A stretch of DNA of 64,000 nucleotides from Myxococcota bacterium (GTDB taxonomy: Bacteria > Myxococcota_A > Polyangia > Nannocystales > Nannocystaceae): positions 96,001 to 160,000 of the forward strand of contig JBCCHT010000009.1 in the NCBI GenBank assembly GCA_039028615.1. Reading direction: 5' to 3'. Shown piece after piece: positions 10,681 to 23,220 of this stretch (position 1 is the stretch's first letter; each line of letters opens with the position of its first letter). The position numbers and the translations under genes were made by a program. Below the pieces are notes generated by a model that saw only the letters and a program-made list of their open reading frames with translations, made no database searches and was not told the DNA's origin.

Positions 10681-10775
10681 CGGGTAGTCCGTGCCGGATG
10701 ACTGCTCGTAGGCCCGTGCCGAGAGCCCGTCGTTCGCGAACCCCGAGGCGCAGGCGTGGCGTCGTGCGAGCGCCC

Positions 10776-13700
10776 ATGACTCGGCTCGGGCTCGTGGTCG
10801 CGATGGTGTCGTTCGTGATCGTCGGCGCGTGGTCGCGGCTCGTGCACGCGCACGAGCTGGGGATCGCGGTCCTGTCGACGACCGTGCCGTCCCGGTTCTG
10901 TCCCGGCGAGCGACGAGGCGTGCCCCTCACGGTGCGCAACGTCGGGCAAGAGGCCTGGGACCCGGCCAAGGGCGATCGCCTCGCGTACCACTGGCTCGAC
11001 CCGTCCGGGGAGATGGTGGAGCGCGATGGTCATCGGACGCTGCTGCCTGGTCCCATCGAGCCCGCCGCTGCGTTCGAGACCCTGGCGCATGTCGAGGCGC
11101 CCGCCGAGCCCGGGCGCTACCGGCTGCAGTGGGCGCTGGTGCGCGAGCAGGTGGACTGGGTGCACACGGGCGATCCGGGGGTGGAGACCGAGGTCGGCGG
11201 CTCCGGGCCCCCGCTGTCGTGGCGCATGGTCGCAGGCGGGCAGCCCGAGCCCATGCGCGTGGGCGAGACGGGCACGGCCTCCCTGACCGTGCGTAACGAC
11301 GGGTGTTCGTCGTGGGCGGCCGAGCAGGGCGACCACATGGCCTACCACTGGTACGACGCCGACGGGCGGGTGGTGGAGCCCGAGGGGCTACGCAGTCCCA
11401 TGCCCGCGCTCGGACCCGGCGAAGAGGCCACCTTCGACGCGAAGGTGCTGCCGCCCTTGGAGCCCGGGGACTACGTTTTGCAGTGGCACCCGGTGCGGGA
11501 AGGCCAGGCGTGGTTTCCCGAGCAGGAGGCCATGGCCGCGGTCTCGGTCGGCGACTCGGCCTGGGCGTGGTCGATGCACATGCTCGAGCCCTTCGACTCG
11601 ATCGCGGCCGGGGAGGTCGCCGACTTCGAGGTTTGGCTCCGCCACGACGGGCTCGACGACTGGTCGACCGCTCAGGGGGATGCGTTCTCGTACCGCTGGC
11701 TCGACGCCGACGGGGCGGTCGTGGCCGAAGGGGCGCGGGTCTCGTTGCCGTCGCCGTGGCTGCCCGGGGATGCGGCGCTCGTCACCGCCAAGGTCGTCGC
11801 GCCCGCGAAGCCGGGCCAGTACACGCTCGCGTGGGAGCCCGTGCGGGAAAACGTGCGGTGGTTCGGCGCGGCCTCGACGATCGGCGATCGACTCGCGGTG
11901 GAGGTCACCACGCCTCGCCTGGGCTGGGCCGTGGAGCAGATCGAGGTCCCCAGCCGGGCCTGGGTCGCGCGACAGGACACGGTACCCGTGGTGCTGCGCA
12001 ACACCGGGGCCGAGGCCTGGGATCCCGCGCGCGGCGATGGGCTCTCGTATCGCTGGTACGACGCCGACGGAGAGACGCTCCTGAGCGATGGCATGCGAAC
12101 CGTCTTGCCCGGCGTGGTGGAGCCGGGGGAGACCGTCGCGCTCGATGCCCGGGTCCGCGGCCCCCTCGAGCCGGGGCAGTTCGTGCTGGGCCTGGAGATG
12201 GTGCGCGAGCACGTCCGCTGGTACGGGGCACCCACCGCGGGGCAGGGTCGGATGGAGGTCCGGGTCGAGCGATGGTCGAGCTACCTGGTGACGCTGCTCG
12301 GCGCAGCGGGCATCGTCTTGGTGGTGGCCTTGCGTCGCCGCCCCGCGCCTGGCCCCGCGTGGTGGGTCGCGTGGCGAGTCGGTCCCGCGCTGTGGTGCGG
12401 GCTGGCCATGGCGGTGGTGGTGCACTGCTTCGTCGACCTCAGCGGCGCGGAGCCCTGGGAGGGTCGGCAGTGGGTGGTGATCGGCCCCGGCTTCGGCCTG
12501 GCCCTGGCGGTGCTGCCCTGGTCGCCGCGCATCCAGGCGTGGGCGGGCGCGGTGGTGCTGGGGCTGTGCACCTTCATCGCCCTGGCCGATCTGGCGTACC
12601 TGCACTTTTTCGGCAGCATCGTGCCGATCTCGGCGGTCTGGGCGGTGCACCACCTGTCGGACGCCGAGGCCACCGTGTCCTCGCTGCTGCAGCCCTCCCA
12701 CGGGTGGCTGGTGACCGTGCCCATCCTGGCGATCGGGCTGGCCATCGCTTGGCCGGGGCGCCTCACCGACGCCCGCCCGCCCGCTCGCCGTCGCCGAATC
12801 TTGGTGGCGATCGGGCTCGGCGTGCTGCTGGGGGCCATGCCCATGGTGCGCACCTTTCAGAAGGTGTTCTCCACCAGCCTGGGTCGCCGCGTCTTCAACG
12901 AGGAGGACAACGTGGGTCGCCTGGGCGTGGTGGGGGCCCACCTGTTCCAGGTGATTCGAGAGCTTCGCGACCTGCTGGGCCCCGACGAGCTGACCGGCGA
13001 GCGGGCGGAGGTCATGGCCCGCGAGCTCGCCGAGCGTCGCGAGGCCCGGGCGCAGGCCAAGCCCCAGACCCCGGGCTTCGGGGCGGCCGAGGGCTACGAC
13101 GTGGTGCTGATCCAGGTCGAAGCGCTCCAGCAGTGGGTCATCGGCGCGAGCGTGCAAGGCCAGGAAGTCACGCCCTTCCTCAATGCGGCCACCCACAATG
13201 CGCTCTACTTCGACCAGGTCTTCGATCAGACCGCGCAGGGGCGGACCTCCGACGCCGAGTACCTGGTGCTCGGAGCCGGCCACCCCCCGGCTCGGGGCGC
13301 GCTGGCGTTTCAGTACCAGGACAACGACTTCTATACGGTCGCCCACGTCCTCGCCGACCGCGGCTACACCACGTTCTCGGCCCATCCCTACAAGCGCGGC
13401 TTCTGGAACCGAGCGCGGATCCACCCCCGCTATGGCTTCGGAAGCTCGCGCTTTCGTCGAGAGTTCGGCCCGGGCCCGATGGTGGGGTGGGGGCTGAGCG
13501 ATGAGGCGTTCTTGGAGCGAATGACGCCCGACATCGTCGGCGCGCCACGGCCCTCGCTCACCTTCATGATCACGCTCAGCCTGCATCATCCCTACGATTC
13601 GTTCCCGTCCGCGTTCAAGCGCTTGGATCTGGGCGGGCTCGAGGGGCACTGGGTGGGCAACTACCTCCATGCCATGCATCACTTCGACGTGGCGTTCGAG

Positions 13701-14240
13701 ACCTTGATGACCACGCTCGAAGAAGAAGGTCGGCTCGAGCACACGCTGGTGGTCCTGTATGGCGATCACGTCACCGGGATGGAAGAGCCGCCCGAGGTGC
13801 TGGCGTTCGCGGGACGTGAGACCTGGGACCCGGGGGCCCACGTTGCGTTGCATCGGGTGCCCGTGTTCTTCTGGGTCGGCGACTCACCGCCCGAAGAGCT
13901 TCGTGGTCAACGCAACCGCGTCGGGGGGCACGTCGACATCGGACCGACGACGCTGCACCTGCTGGGCATCGACGATCCTCGACCGGCCGCATTGGGGCGA
14001 CCTTTGCTCGAGCCGGGGCCGGGCTTCGCCGTGCTGTCCTCGGGTGGGGCCGTCGATGCCGAGCTCGCGCTGGCCATGGCGGGCGAGGGCATCCCTCGCG
14101 AGGGCACGTGCTTCGAGCGGCACGGAGGCCGGAGTGTCGCGCTCGAACGCTGCGCGTCGCTCGCCGCGCGGGCCGAAGTCGAGCTCGAAATCGCCCGGGA
14201 ACTACTCACGCACGACGTGCACCGCGCGCCGCCCGAGTGA
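10776..14240 (+). CDS. LtaS-family (sulfatase-like) membrane enzyme with four N-terminal Ig-like repeats
   Basis: Four repeats of W...GD.LAYHW.D..G....G.R..LP, then a TM region and a catalytic domain with IQVEA, QGRTSDAEY, FWNR, ITLSLHHPY and YGDH. Confidence 0.85.
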   Translation: MTRLGLVVAMVSFVIVGAWSRLVHAHELGIAVLSTTVPSRFCPGERRGVPLTVRNVGQEAWDPAKGDRLAYHWLDPSGEMVERDGHRTLLPGPIEPAAAFETLAHVEAPAEPGRYRLQWALVREQVDWVHTGDPGVETEVGGSGPPLSWRMVAGGQPEPMRVGETGTASLTVRNDGCSSWAAEQGDHMAYHWYDADGRVVEPEGLRSPMPALGPGEEATFDAKVLPPLEPGDYVLQWHPVREGQAWFPEQEAMAAVSVGDSAWAWSMHMLEPFDSIAAGEVADFEVWLRHDGLDDWSTAQGDAFSYRWLDADGAVVAEGARVSLPSPWLPGDAALVTAKVVAPAKPGQYTLAWEPVRENVRWFGAASTIGDRLAVEVTTPRLGWAVEQIEVPSRAWVARQDTVPVVLRNTGAEAWDPARGDGLSYRWYDADGETLLSDGMRTVLPGVVEPGETVALDARVRGPLEPGQFVLGLEMVREHVRWYGAPTAGQGRMEVRVERWSSYLVTLLGAAGIVLVVALRRRPAPGPAWWVAWRVGPALWCGLAMAVVVHCFVDLSGAEPWEGRQWVVIGPGFGLALAVLPWSPRIQAWAGAVVLGLCTFIALADLAYLHFFGSIVPISAVWAVHHLSDAEATVSSLLQPSHGWLVTVPILAIGLAIAWPGRLTDARPPARRRRILVAIGLGVLLGAMPMVRTFQKVFSTSLGRRVFNEEDNVGRLGVVGAHLFQVIRELRDLLGPDELTGERAEVMARELAERREARAQAKPQTPGFGAAEGYDVVLIQVEALQQWVIGASVQGQEVTPFLNAATHNALYFDQVFDQTAQGRTSDAEYLVLGAGHPPARGALAFQYQDNDFYTVAHVLADRGYTTFSAHPYKRGFWNRARIHPRYGFGSSRFRREFGPGPMVGWGLSDEAFLERMTPDIVGAPRPSLTFMITLSLHHPYDSFPSAFKRLDLGGLEGHWVGNYLHAMHHFDVAFETLMTTLEEEGRLEHTLVVLYGDHVTGMEEPPEVLAFAGRETWDPGAHVALHRVPVFFWVGDSPPEELRGQRNRVGGHVDIGPTTLHLLGIDDPRPAALGRPLLEPGPGFAVLSSGGAVDAELALAMAGEGIPREGTCFERHGGRSVALERCASLAARAEVELEIARELLTHDVHRAPPE

Positions 14241-14504
14241 CGGTTTCGCGCCGTTTTTGATCTGCGCGCCCGATCCATGGCGAGATCTGCCGGGCGACTC
14301 CCCGGTTCGCGGGAGAACGGTACTCGAAAGCACAAAAGCGGCGCCGATTCTGGCCTGAGATGGGCGGAATCGAGCATTGATGGCTAGTGGTTATGCTACC
14401 AGTGGCTACAAGTATAGCCATATAGGTTTTGGGCATACAATGTAGGCATGTGTAGACACACGTAGTTTCTCCAATGATTCCTACATGTAGGTCAATGGTG
14501 GGCC

Positions 14505-14519
14505 TGGCACACACATTGC
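14505..14519 (+). promoter_or_regulatory. Sigma-54 (-24/-12) promoter
   Basis: TGGCAC-ACACA-TTGC matches TGGCAC-N5-TTGC. It lies about 95 bp upstream of the 14615 start, downstream of an AT-rich tract. Confidence 0.75.
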
Positions 14520-14614
14520 GTAGGGGGGGAGCGCGAGGCCAGTGGCCACCCGCAACCGCAACCGTCACCCACGACGCCCGTCCTAACCGCCCAAGAGCTT
14601 CTCGAGGAATCAAG

Positions 14615-16768
14615 ATGATGAAAGCCAACAAGATCGCCTGGCTGACCGCTTTGACCATTCTGGCTGGCTGCGCCGATGCAGGGACGGACAACGAGCCCGG
14701 CGACGAGCTGAGCCCGGACTTCCGTGACGGCTCGTACCACTACGTGTTCGGGTACGACCCCGAGACCGGCGAGCAGATTCGCGGCGGCGCGCACATGGTC
14801 CTGACCTTCGACGAAGAGGGCAAGACCGAGGCCATCGACTCCGCCAACCGCACCTCGCGATTCCACCCCTCGCTGACCACGGGCAGCGAGTACGCCCGCT
14901 TCGACGCGAGCCTCACCGAGGGCGAGACCGACTGGGACGTGTTCGCCTCCACCTGGTGGCCGCAGTCCAAGAACGGCACCGCTTGGCGCTGGCAGCCCGG
15001 CGCCAACCAGGACTACGCCGACCTCAGCGACGTCGACACCCTCTCCCCCATGGAGAAGTACGACCTGCTGTTCTACCCGGGCCAGGGCGATACGGTCCCC
15101 GCGACCGAGAACTGCACCTACGCCGACTACGCCGAGGACCGCGACAACTGCGAGAAGACCTCGCACCCCGAGCTGACCGTGGCCGGCCCCGCTACCAAGT
15201 GGGAGATCGAGAACCAGGGCCAGTACCAGTGGGTGCAGCCCGAGAACTGGTGGGGCCACTGCAACGGCTGGGCCTCCTACGCCACCGCCGAGCCCATGGG
15301 CTACCCGCACCGCGACGTCCGCGTGAAGCTGGTCGACGACAAGGTCACCGAGTGCGTCGAGGGTGATGACGACGCCAGCTGCGTGCTGTGGAAGATGGCC
15401 GACGTCGAGGGCCTGTTCACCGAGCTTCACTTCAGCGACCAGGCCACCTTCACCGGCCGACGCTGCCGCACCGCCGCCGACGAGATCGAGCGCGACGAGT
15501 TCGGTCGTCCCACCGACGTGTCCTGCCGCGACCTCAACCCCGGCTCCTTCCACATCGCCATCACCGGCCTGCTGGGCCGTGGCACCCGCAACCTGACCAC
15601 CAACGAGGACGGCCGCCCGCCCTTCGTGGTCGACCACACCGCGGACTACGAGGTCTGGAACTTCCCCGTGACCGCGTTCACGGCGGACTACGAGACCGTC
15701 ACCGCCGAGCAGGCCAACGAGCTCATCGGGGCCAACGGCTCCGACTACGTCTTCAACGACGACGCCGTGTCCTTCCAGCGGGTCGCCCTGACCTACACCA
15801 TGATCTCGGACGCCGTGCCCGAGAACGAGCTGCTCAAGCGCGCCGACACCCGCAACGTCGACCCGCACCTGGTCGAGCTCAACTACGTGCTCGAGCTGGA
15901 CGAGGGCGGCCGCATCATCGGCGGCGAGTGGATCAAGGATCCCGTCACCACCGGTCCCAACAACCAAGAGCTGCACCCGGACTTCGCCTGGATGGCCGTG
16001 GGCGCCATTGGCTACGGCGAGGGGTCGGATGACACCGGCGGCGACAACGACAACCCCTACATCGCGCTGTCCAAGGCTCGCGCCCTGCTCCAGTGCGCCA
16101 ACGAGCCCGAGTCCTGCGCCCCCGAGGGCCGCGACGGCGAGCTCGAGCCCCTGCTCGACGTGACCGAGATGGTCGCCGAGGACGAGACCCGCACCTACGC
16201 CACCGAGGAGCTTCCCGCGGGCGAGTTCACCGTGACCCTGGCCCACACCGAGGCCAATCCCGGCGGCGACGCGGACCTCTACGTCCGGGTGGGCGAAGGC
16301 CCGACCATGGAGGAGTACGACTGCCGCCCCTGGGAGACCGGCAGCGACGAGGTGTGCGTGGTCAACCTGACCGAGGCCAGCCGCATCGACATCATGGTCC
16401 ACGGCTACCCGGGCGAGGGCGACAGCCACTTCCGCCTGACCGTGACCGGTGACGTCGGCGAGCCCGAGCCCGAGGTCTGGGGCGGCCTGAACGAGAGCGG
16501 CACCGTGGTCGCGGGCGAGGAAGTTCGCTTCACCACGCCCAGCCTGCCCGTCGGGAGCTATCTGTTCGACATGAAGGGTGACGAGGACGCAGACCTCTAC
16601 GTCGCGGTGGGCAGCGAGCCGACCACTTCGGTCTACGAGTGCCGCCCCTACCTCAACGGCTCCGAAGAGCAGTGCACCGTCACGCTGAGCGAGCCCGCCG
16701 AGATTCACGTCATGGTCCGCGGCTACGCCGACCGCTCCAACTGGCAGCTCACTGGCGCCGCCCAGTAG
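14615..16768 (+). CDS. Secreted lipoprotein with a transglutaminase-elicitor (GP42)-like domain and two C-terminal PPC domains
   Basis: Lipobox ILAGC; motifs PMEKYD, WWGHCNGW, DLNPGSFH, VVD..A..EVWNFPV, YVLELD..G.IIGGEW and HPDF.W; two GDADLYV..G..PT...YDCRP...GS.E.C repeats. GAGGA RBS. Confidence 0.8.
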   Translation: MMKANKIAWLTALTILAGCADAGTDNEPGDELSPDFRDGSYHYVFGYDPETGEQIRGGAHMVLTFDEEGKTEAIDSANRTSRFHPSLTTGSEYARFDASLTEGETDWDVFASTWWPQSKNGTAWRWQPGANQDYADLSDVDTLSPMEKYDLLFYPGQGDTVPATENCTYADYAEDRDNCEKTSHPELTVAGPATKWEIENQGQYQWVQPENWWGHCNGWASYATAEPMGYPHRDVRVKLVDDKVTECVEGDDDASCVLWKMADVEGLFTELHFSDQATFTGRRCRTAADEIERDEFGRPTDVSCRDLNPGSFHIAITGLLGRGTRNLTTNEDGRPPFVVDHTADYEVWNFPVTAFTADYETVTAEQANELIGANGSDYVFNDDAVSFQRVALTYTMISDAVPENELLKRADTRNVDPHLVELNYVLELDEGGRIIGGEWIKDPVTTGPNNQELHPDFAWMAVGAIGYGEGSDDTGGDNDNPYIALSKARALLQCANEPESCAPEGRDGELEPLLDVTEMVAEDETRTYATEELPAGEFTVTLAHTEANPGGDADLYVRVGEGPTMEEYDCRPWETGSDEVCVVNLTEASRIDIMVHGYPGEGDSHFRLTVTGDVGEPEPEVWGGLNESGTVVAGEEVRFTTPSLPVGSYLFDMKGDEDADLYVAVGSEPTTSVYECRPYLNGSEEQCTVTLSEPAEIHVMVRGYADRSNWQLTGAAQ

Positions 16769-22060: not shown

Positions 22061-22324
22061 TCAGTCCTCGGCGGGGAGGGGGCGCAGGCGAGCCCGACCC
22101 GCGCGTCGCTTGAGGCGGTACTCGAGCGACTGCGCTTCGCCGCGGGTCTCGAAGGGGCCGTGGGTGATGCCGACCGTCCAGGGGCGCCCGGCTCGGGTCG
22201 ACTTGGCGCCGCCCGGTTGCTCCCCGTTGTGCTGCTCGAGCCGGCGATCGAGGTCGTTGGTGATGCCTACGTAGGTCCGCCGACCATTGCTGGATACCAG
22301 CACGTACACCGTCCACTCGGACAC
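22061..22324 (-). CDS. Stand-alone GIY-YIG nuclease (UPF0213/SLX1-like)
   Basis: WTVYVL...RTYVGIT.DL.RRL.QHNG...GGAK.TR..RPW and A..LE..LK. GTG start inferred. Confidence 0.85.
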   Translation of the reverse strand: MSEWTVYVLVSSNGRRTYVGITNDLDRRLEQHNGEQPGGAKSTRAGRPWTVGITHGPFETRGEAQSLEYRLKRRAGRARLRPLPAED

Positions 22325-22491
22325 CCCCGCAGCGTCGCCGATGGGTCGCGCCGTGTCCAGGGCGCTGCGGTCCACGCCGACGCCCGAGCGGGGAAACCAT
22401 GAACGTCGCGCGGAACGAAGGTCCGCGCGAGCCCAACGGGCATCCATCTCCCGTGTTGACCCCGCCCGAATCCGCGTGCGATCGATGATGG

Positions 22492-23220
22492 GTGACCGTG
22501 AAATCCCGCCCCGATCGTAGCCCCCTCGTCGTCCCTCGCCGCGGCTTCCTGGTCGCCGCGGGTGCGCTCGCAGGGGTCACCGTGCTCCCGCGCTGGGCGG
22601 TGGCCGGGACCCACTACGCGTTCGTGAAGATCGAGGCCAACGGCACCGTCGTCACGGGGAACACGGACATCACCAACATCGGCGGCGAGGAACTGCCCCG
22701 CGCGGAGTGGATTCAGTGCAAGCGGGTCAGCTACGGGCTCAAGCGCGACATCGGCACGGGCGCTCGCGTCAGCGGTCACACGCACTACGACCGCATCGAG
22801 TTCGATGCCAAGGGCGGCCCCGGCTACAAGGGGCTCACTTCGGCGCTGAAGCGCGATCCCAAGCACAAGTCCTATACCCACATCGGCTTGTATTGCCCCC
22901 GGAGCACGTCGGCCCCCTTGCTCGCCCAGGCCCTCGAGCGCGGCCACACCGTCAACCTGGAGATGCGGTTCTTCCACTCGGGCAGTGCCAAGGGCGACGA
23001 GGCCACCAAGTACATGGAGATCGTGTGCACCGATGGCCGTCTCGCCGGCGTCAAGGTCATCAACCAGACCCGGCCCGAGGCCAAAGGGACGACGGACGTG
23101 GAGGGGGAGGCCAACATGATGATCCACTACGCCTTCCATCAGATGCAGATCGACCACGTGGGCGATGACGGTGCGACCTCGGCCCACTTCGAGTGGACGG
23201 GCATGAGCAAGGCCGACTAG
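22492..23220 (+). CDS. Hcp/TssD (T6SS tube)-like protein with a twin-arginine signal peptide
   Basis: RRGFL plus a hydrophobic stretch plus AVA. The mature part has AFVKIE..G...G, EWI...V.YG..R..GTG..SG, S.PLLAQAL..G, FF, KY.EI...D and F..M......G......W. Confidence 0.65.
   Translation: MTVKSRPDRSPLVVPRRGFLVAAGALAGVTVLPRWAVAGTHYAFVKIEANGTVVTGNTDITNIGGEELPRAEWIQCKRVSYGLKRDIGTGARVSGHTHYDRIEFDAKGGPGYKGLTSALKRDPKHKSYTHIGLYCPRSTSAPLLAQALERGHTVNLEMRFFHSGSAKGDEATKYMEIVCTDGRLAGVKVINQTRPEAKGTTDVEGEANMMIHYAFHQMQIDHVGDDGATSAHFEWTGMSKAD

Follow-up and report, generated by a model that had tools for sequence, protein, structure and literature searches.

The window analyzed here, a stretch of 64,000 nucleotides from the genome of a marine myxobacterium of the Nannocystaceae, encodes a protein with the fold of Hcp, the tube protein of type VI secretion systems (T6SSs), behind a predicted twin-arginine (Tat) signal peptide. 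It belongs to a family whose members are predicted to leave the cell by the Tat, Sec or eukaryotic secretory route and that tracks a leaderless Hcp at the tube-contact loop, which points to a second job for a protein commonly regarded as a cytosolic T6SS marker. The explanation we put forward, tentatively and at somewhat less than an even chance, is a Tat-exported mimic that traps the rings of a foreign T6SS tube, or what they carry, and does not itself lengthen a tube. The features of the gene are collected in Table 1.

Table 1. Features of the exported Hcp gene and its product (positions are those of the window)
Feature	Position	Strand	Basis or detail
Tat-leader Hcp-fold protein gene	22492..23220	+	242 aa and stop, GTG start
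Predicted twin-arginine signal peptide, residues 1-38	22492..22605	+	RR at 22537-22542, terminal AVA cleavage motif
Predicted mature Hcp-fold domain, residues 39-242	22606..23217	+	First residue corresponds to position 2 of leaderless members
Near-invariant segment, residues 83-105, overhang loop L2,3 and native strand 3	22738..22806	+	HMM alignment to 5URW
29-residue insert (residues 106-134) that repeats the helix 1–strand 3 unit in tandem	22807..22893	+	Self-repeat, AlphaFold
Replaced loop L4,5, residues 162-172	22975..23007	+	Identity to leaderless forms

The reading frame has a GC3 of 0.91; the opposite-strand frame is also open, the usual shadow of a high-GC gene. No sigma-70 promoter or terminator pattern was found at the gene. 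Its GTG start pairs in alignment with a GTG in the related locus L009 and is retained in a contig from sequencing run X2, where the alternative GTG at 22498 reads GCG; the protein collection sets the start at 22498, giving 240 aa. The leader is made up of P-R16-R17-G-F-L, 16 uncharged residues, R34 and A36-V37-A38, and its RRGFL, uncharged h-region, R34 and AVA match the Tat motif rules (R-R-x-F-L, a basic residue in the c-region, A-x-A), so at the level of sequence it reads as the leader of a Tat substrate. The host genome has tatC (contig C27, 220.9 bits). The RR motif, h-region and AxA site described in the earlier note are thus all present, with weak HMM support: PF10518 reaches 13.7 bits (cut-off 22.7) and TIGR01409 gives no match for the window protein, while the relative P0021 passes TIGR01409 (17.3 against 16.7) and P0022 and P0023 fall narrowly below. 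Over positions 16-38, identity to the window leader is 18/23 in L009, 13/23 in L010, 14/23 in L011 and 11/20 in L012, with silent changes within the identical residues at 6/18, 8/13, 11/14 and 7 positions, respectively. The earlier note took the leader to be translated, a claim in doubt had homologues started downstream of it; L009-L011 keep the leader with silent changes, and the leader appears to be genuinely translated. Export by Tat and cleavage after AVA are predicted for the window protein.

Standard family models capture the protein poorly. TIGR03344 matches at E 2e-5 with 24.4 bits, below its cut-off of 58.9, and PF05638 gives no match at E 0.1. Six of eight relatives scanned pass PF05638, and relatives that lack the insert lie above the PF05638 cut-off and below that of TIGR03344. 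A single-sequence phmmer search of the PDB with the window protein found no match; a 12-row family profile searched against solved sequences returned three matches, all Hcp, the best being Myxococcus xanthus 5URW (E 7.5e-7). The AlphaFold model (pLDDT 71, pTM 0.66) has the β-sandwich and outer helix of the Hcp/TssD fold. With this predicted model all top Foldseek rows are Hcp (best E 6.4e-10), and VIA aligns 136 residues to EAEC Hcp1 (4HKH) at Z 15.6 and rmsd 2.6; an Atlas result is also consistent with the Hcp fold. Hcps score Z 10.5-15.6 in VIA and phage or eCIS tubes Z 8.9 or less. A tail-tube identity was rejected, since all Hcps rank higher and no family member occurs in viral contigs, phages or plasmids. 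The earlier assignment to Hcp holds, with the fold recovered by Foldseek, by the family profile through 5URW and by VIA. Complex prediction with four copies of residues 39-240 gave a median of 0.36 against a mark of 0.42 (runs 0.50, 0.17 and 0.36) and carries no weight in the readings below.

The gene lies among genes for a metallo-β-lactamase-fold protein, a GIY-YIG protein, an LRR protein and a short-chain dehydrogenase. When the window was scanned with 30 ORFs from the T6SS and vgrG regions of the same genome, only Ser/Thr kinases matched, which bears out the earlier statement that the window has no T6SS gene. T6SS genes were likewise not seen near the gene in L009-L012, and among 12 window ORFs only a generic kinase matches those loci, leaving no conserved neighbor. 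The earlier description of the gene as an orphan fits the locus and fails for the genome, which has a complete T6SS on contigs C34 and C19 (C34:126000-144943 and C19:1-3600, broken at the contig ends within tssC) and four vgrG loci on other contigs. The canonical Hcp of the host is leaderless and scores 96 bits on TIGR03344; the window protein is 17% identical to it, and a tblastn search with the window protein does not find it. Together with separation in the tree, this rules out a recent paralogue of the host Hcp.

Other features of these loci deserve mention. A stand-alone GIY-YIG nuclease gene (22061-22447, minus strand) is divergent to the Hcp gene. A probable lipoprotein (14474-16768, plus strand) has a WWGHCNGW motif, presumably transglutaminase-elicitor-like, and C-terminal repeat domains. 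A large protein (10698-14240, plus strand) has about four repeated units, presumably extracellular and Ig-like, ahead of a membrane and sulfatase portion that is presumably related to LTA synthase. Two genomes from a single genus have an MsrA-like gene immediately upstream of the Tat-Hcp gene (L010:7354-7767 and L011:6844-7341); it is absent from the window and from L009.

The family is small. It comprises 29 clusters among 2,655 candidates, or 31 among 4,728 when a profile is used. The 29 clusters include 5 leaderless ones (172-173 aa), 22 with leaders and 2 fragments; nine of the leaders are of the RR type, nine are hydrophobic without RR, and four belong to gene calls cut within the leader. 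In 17 of the 22 the leader ends in Ala directly ahead of leaderless residue 2. A Tat leader, predicted for the window protein as in the earlier note, is not essential to the family, in which Sec-type and eukaryote-type leaders also exist. Bacterial members with names are Myxococcales and Nannocystaceae MAGs, and the window protein is 79% identical to a leaderless Hcp from other organisms. Protist records with hydrophobic leaders come from the alga Chromera velia (Cvel_22785, Cvel_13547) and from the diplonemids Flectonema neradi (two) and Rhynchopus humris, and four further members on contigs of 95-742 kb group with the diplonemid proteins in the tree. Protist membership rests on sequence records, and contamination is possible. 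Eukaryote-type paralogues occur as pairs in three records: P0017 and P0020 on one 720-kb contig, Cvel_22785 and Cvel_13547, and P0015 and P0031.

Among 185,579 species genomes, two search patterns found three loci, all Tat forms and none leaderless. Within the Nannocystaceae the family is present in 4 of 73 genomes and any Hcp-like match in 47 of 73; samples of the class and phylum yielded 4 and 1 of 401 genomes (E 1e-15), all Nannocystaceae. Every member from a species genome is a Tat form carrying the insert. Metagenome contigs contributed one locus, and viral contigs, phages and plasmids none. Sequencing runs X1-X4 held one related gene copy, in X2, and no leaderless form. Two genomes with the gene (G031 and G066, 86-87% complete) have no VipB, TssF or PF05638 match; a third, G016, has a VipB match. 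Leaderless clusters P0005, P0007, P0010, P0011, P0044 and P0053 are nearly all on contigs about the size of a gene (594-3,511 bp), a pattern that could reflect assembled transcripts, or genes whose multiple copies fragment an assembly; one leaderless member is on a 17-kb contig.

In the tree, the family forms one clade separate from 13 canonical Nannocystaceae Hcps (support 100/100, with the bootstrap incompletely settled), and its interior is star-like. The tree test did not reject one common origin for all exported forms (p-AU 0.33, for 21 rows with short forms and long branches omitted), and repeated independent gains of leaders were not demonstrated.

The earlier note had described an insertion of about 28 aa that partly repeats the segment upstream. 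The insertion is real and has 29 residues, but the repeat register was wrong. An LKRD-to-LKRD register (offset 36) was rejected because the second LKRD closes the duplicated helix and does not copy the first; the true period is 29, which pairs H96-T-H-Y with H125-K-S-Y. Insert-bearing relatives show a self-repeat period of 28-29. The repeat is beyond chance in five of six such relatives (L009, P0004, P0006, P0008 and P0009; 0-1 of 200 shuffles), the exception being P0019. For the window protein, too, the repeat does not rise above chance (33 of 200 shuffles, at another offset); there the second helix of the duplication has drifted. In the AlphaFold models of the window protein and P0009, the duplicate strand (about residues 128-136) sits in the core, and the L2,3 loop and native strand are disordered. 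Disorder of L2,3 is common in free Hcp, and the other register is possible for these modeled inserts.

Loop L4,5 is the second rearranged region. Its identity to leaderless forms is 0-22% in the window protein, P0004 and L009 and 66-100% in the other insert-bearing clade and the eukaryote-type forms. In the clade of P0006, P0008 and P0009 the N-terminal arm is altered instead (27-42% identity). The inner-barrel strands of the window protein are 88-100% kept. In eight short forms conservation is limited to the N-terminal half, strands 5-9 being only 0-26% identical. Short Tat or Sec forms (P0021-P0023, P0025-P0028, P0030 and L012:2381-2893) have this half nearly intact and strands 5-9 swapped for unrelated-looking sequence that ends in a probable helix.

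The near-invariant segment is where the exported forms stand apart from canonical Hcps. In the window protein, residues 83-105 are 95% identical to the nearest leaderless form, and they form the conservation peak of the family. For the comparison, leaders and inserts were stripped and each of 24 exported forms was set against its closest counterpart among 9 leaderless sequences; 351 pairs from 27 canonical Hcps served as the control; fragments (P0014, P0024, P0041 and P0042), the truncated P0012 and near-duplicates (P0003, P0032, P0037 and P0038) were left out of the tables. Exported forms in which the remainder is less than 50% identical keep 78-100% of this segment (12 rows, means 0.94 and 0.90), whereas canonical Nannocystaceae Hcp pairs at the same divergence (n=77) keep 21% and 38% on average and at most 55%. 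In sliding 23-residue windows the exported forms peak at residues 83-105 (0.90-0.91), and canonical Hcps show no peak there (0.56-0.57, against 0.58 overall). Silent-site changes within the patch, 2-4 of 11-12 per pair, fit selection at the protein level. Four-fold sites differ at 18 of 67 positions inside the patch and 186 of 454 outside, small and nonindependent counts that leave some DNA-level homogenization possible.

The first searches relied on shared exact words and were therefore biased toward relatives with an intact patch. A word-free profile search over 1.84 billion representatives gave 80 matches. Among these are distant Tat or Sec forms with a worn yet recognizable loop (P0046, P0057, P0043 and P0051) and P0045, which is leaderless with the loop replaced; P0044 and P0053 represent related leaderless groups on short contigs. 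Many signal-bearing Hcps of other types also occur, with a hydrophobic N-terminal stretch in 23 of 75 new distant matches. Exact patches of 10-26 residues of the leaderless Hcp appear in otherwise unrelated, mostly secreted-looking proteins (P0052, P0056, P0059, P0064, P0072 and P0082). The patches kept by secreted-looking proteins include the C-terminal 21-26 residues and strands 5-6. P0064 (1,328 aa) carries the C-terminal patch twice, and P0072, a 56-aa peptide, has the strand 3 patch behind Gly-Gly. As judged from these sequences, the invariance of the loop is valid for the close family, and the copying extends beyond L2,3. Longer fused forms of the window Hcp were absent among 7,997 candidates, which is weak evidence, and the word-free search did return long proteins with patches. 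Four Planctomycete-type proteins of 1,048-1,446 aa (P0050, P0054, P0068 and P0106) have six tandem Hcp domains each; one has a weak Planctomycete extracellular motif and one has dockerin and Ig domains, and their sequences suggest candidate single-chain Hcp rings outside the cell.

What the two loops do in canonical Hcps gives a frame for these observations. The extended loop is required for ring stacking (PMC4650826), L2,3 is required for effector delivery (PMC5874247), L4,5 is located at the ring–ring interface (PMC3925092), and Hcp protomers wrap stepwise around cargo (PMC13323088).

In the proposed mechanism, Tat would export the window protein to the periplasm or surface, and cleavage after AVA would leave the same N terminus as the leaderless protein has after removal of its Met. 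The duplicate strand would occupy the strand 3 slot, as modeled, and so display the invariant segment. That segment would be kept since it must match an outside partner, either the cognate leaderless Hcp, which would be the T6SS tube protein of a foreign attacker, or its effector. Without L4,5 and with an extra helix, the mimic would not extend a tube, and its binding of incoming rings or cargo would protect the cell. This trapping role is favored because exported forms conserve L2,3 and strand 3 much more strongly than the remainder and because 17 of the 22 leaders end in Ala just ahead of leaderless residue 2. It gains further from a family that is far from canonical Hcps, sporadic and without a conserved neighbor, from the presence of the gene in G031 and G066, and from leader-bearing forms in Chromera velia and two diplonemid records. 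It is weakened most because the supposed model is rarer than the mimics (5 leaderless against 22 leader-bearing clusters) and because the leaderless members sit on short contigs that keep their neighborhood out of view. Worn loops in distant forms, different exact patches in other secreted proteins, the compatibility of a single origin and the below-cut-off Tat HMM score weaken it as well. The earlier note had proposed a repurposed Hcp outside the cytoplasm, acting for example as a chaperone, pore, filament or decoy: we infer such a location too, the conservation pattern speaks for the decoy, and the pore has no support.

Another explanation, which has a genuine though minor share of our confidence, is a T6SS-independent ring or short tube in the envelope or at the surface that has a task of its own, such as scaffolding, carrying or ligand binding. 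In that case the invariant loop would be for self-assembly or for a conserved ligand, possibly a metal held by H96, H98 and D100, and the leaderless forms would be cytosolic isoforms. The Tat pathway exports folded oligomers, the inner barrel of the window protein is well kept, exported forms outnumber leaderless ones, nearly a third of the new distant matches have a hydrophobic N-terminal stretch, and the six-domain proteins suggest extracellular single-chain rings. Such a ring is harder to square with the eight short forms that have lost most of strands 5-9, with bare patches in unrelated proteins and with the replaced L4,5 of the window clade; self-assembly alone would leave partners free to drift together and the near-identity of bacterial and protist segments unexplained. 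Those bare patches, P0064 and P0072 among them, together with the extrusion of the invariant segment in both AlphaFold models, instead speak for the view that the Hcp fold is a carrier for an exact peptide read by a receptor, sensor or protease, foreign or own, which would be mimicry of a signal and not a jamming of tubes. We consider this doubtful: the whole fold is kept at 79% identity, beyond the needs of one epitope, and the gene is not accompanied by one for a receptor or partner.

A link to the secretion system of the host itself is improbable. The host does carry a complete T6SS along with four vgrG loci, and G016 has a VipB match, as would suit a periplasmic cap, guide or chaperone, but the protein is only 17% identical to the host Hcp and its gene is unlinked. 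G031 and G066 lack VipB, TssF and Hcp matches, the Tat form is far rarer among Nannocystaceae than Hcp-like matches are (4 against 47 of 73 genomes), and the T6SS is absent from protists. Least credible of all, and to our minds very improbable, is that the leader is untranslated or nonfunctional and the gene a drifting hcp relic. A Met-initiated start and a clear ribosome-binding site are absent and the Tat HMMs score below cut-off; against this, four other loci keep the leader with mostly silent changes, the frame is intact throughout, the leaderless start position has no Met, and the leaders of 17 of 22 clusters terminate at the same residue.

If the exported Hcp is a decoy, the defense would be aimed at the injection device and not at individual toxins and would be common to bacteria and protists. 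If it is a free ring, it would offer a natural exported Hcp scaffold. A wider version of the decoy idea, which we think rather unlikely to be right in full, is that myxobacteria, other bacteria and marine protists export matched copies or patches of a foreign T6SS tube protein as a cross-kingdom defense against injection. The Tat form would display the stacking loop and the freed strand as bait and, having no second stacking loop, would cap or strip tubes and hold cargo. In either case, PF05638 matches in genomes and protists such as Chromera merit a check of the N terminus before they are called T6SS or contamination.

Among known systems, signal-bearing Hcps as such are not unique to this family. 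PEP-CTERM-bearing Hcp-domain proteins are a class filtered out in PMC8262886, where the available text describes no function for them. They resemble the window protein in having an Hcp domain exported by a general route; the window protein differs in having a Tat-type leader and no C-terminal sorting signal. Specialized Hcp effectors, as far as PMC13323088 and PMC8262886 are available, are likewise Hcp domains with additions, but they exit via the T6SS with a C-terminal toxin domain, whereas the window protein carries its export signal at the N terminus and lacks any added domain. In the accessible part of PMC13323088 Tat appears as an analogy only, and that of bioRxiv 10.1101/2024.11.06.622250 mentions proteins with Hcp domains in a secretome but gives no details of signal peptides. 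In the main texts of the open-access literature, we found no work on an Hcp that bears a signal peptide, on Hcp from Chromera or diplonemids, or on a decoy role for Hcp. The Tat-type Hcp, the protist members and the loop conservation thus appear to be new with respect to that literature, and supplements of surveys of horizontal gene transfer in these protists could list the genes.

The closest comparison is with Hcp/TssD itself (PF05638, TIGR03344). A canonical T6SS tube protein is cytosolic without a signal peptide and belongs to a T6SS cluster or an hcp–vgrG island; the window gene has a conserved RR leader and lies in neither setting. Canonical tube proteins also form hexameric rings that pile up head to tail and leave the cell on sheath contraction with effectors in the lumen; the window protein keeps L2,3 and has L4,5 replaced. 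The nearest solved Hcp is M. xanthus 5URW by sequence and EAEC Hcp1 4HKH by fold. Unlike Hcp/TssD, the window protein has a twin-arginine leader, no T6SS gene nearby, the 29-residue duplication and a replaced L4,5; it also falls under the family cut-offs, is 11-17% identical to solved Hcps and has relatives in protist records. What the two share is the fold, the order of the strands (Z 13.4-15.6), the helix and the strands of the inner barrel.
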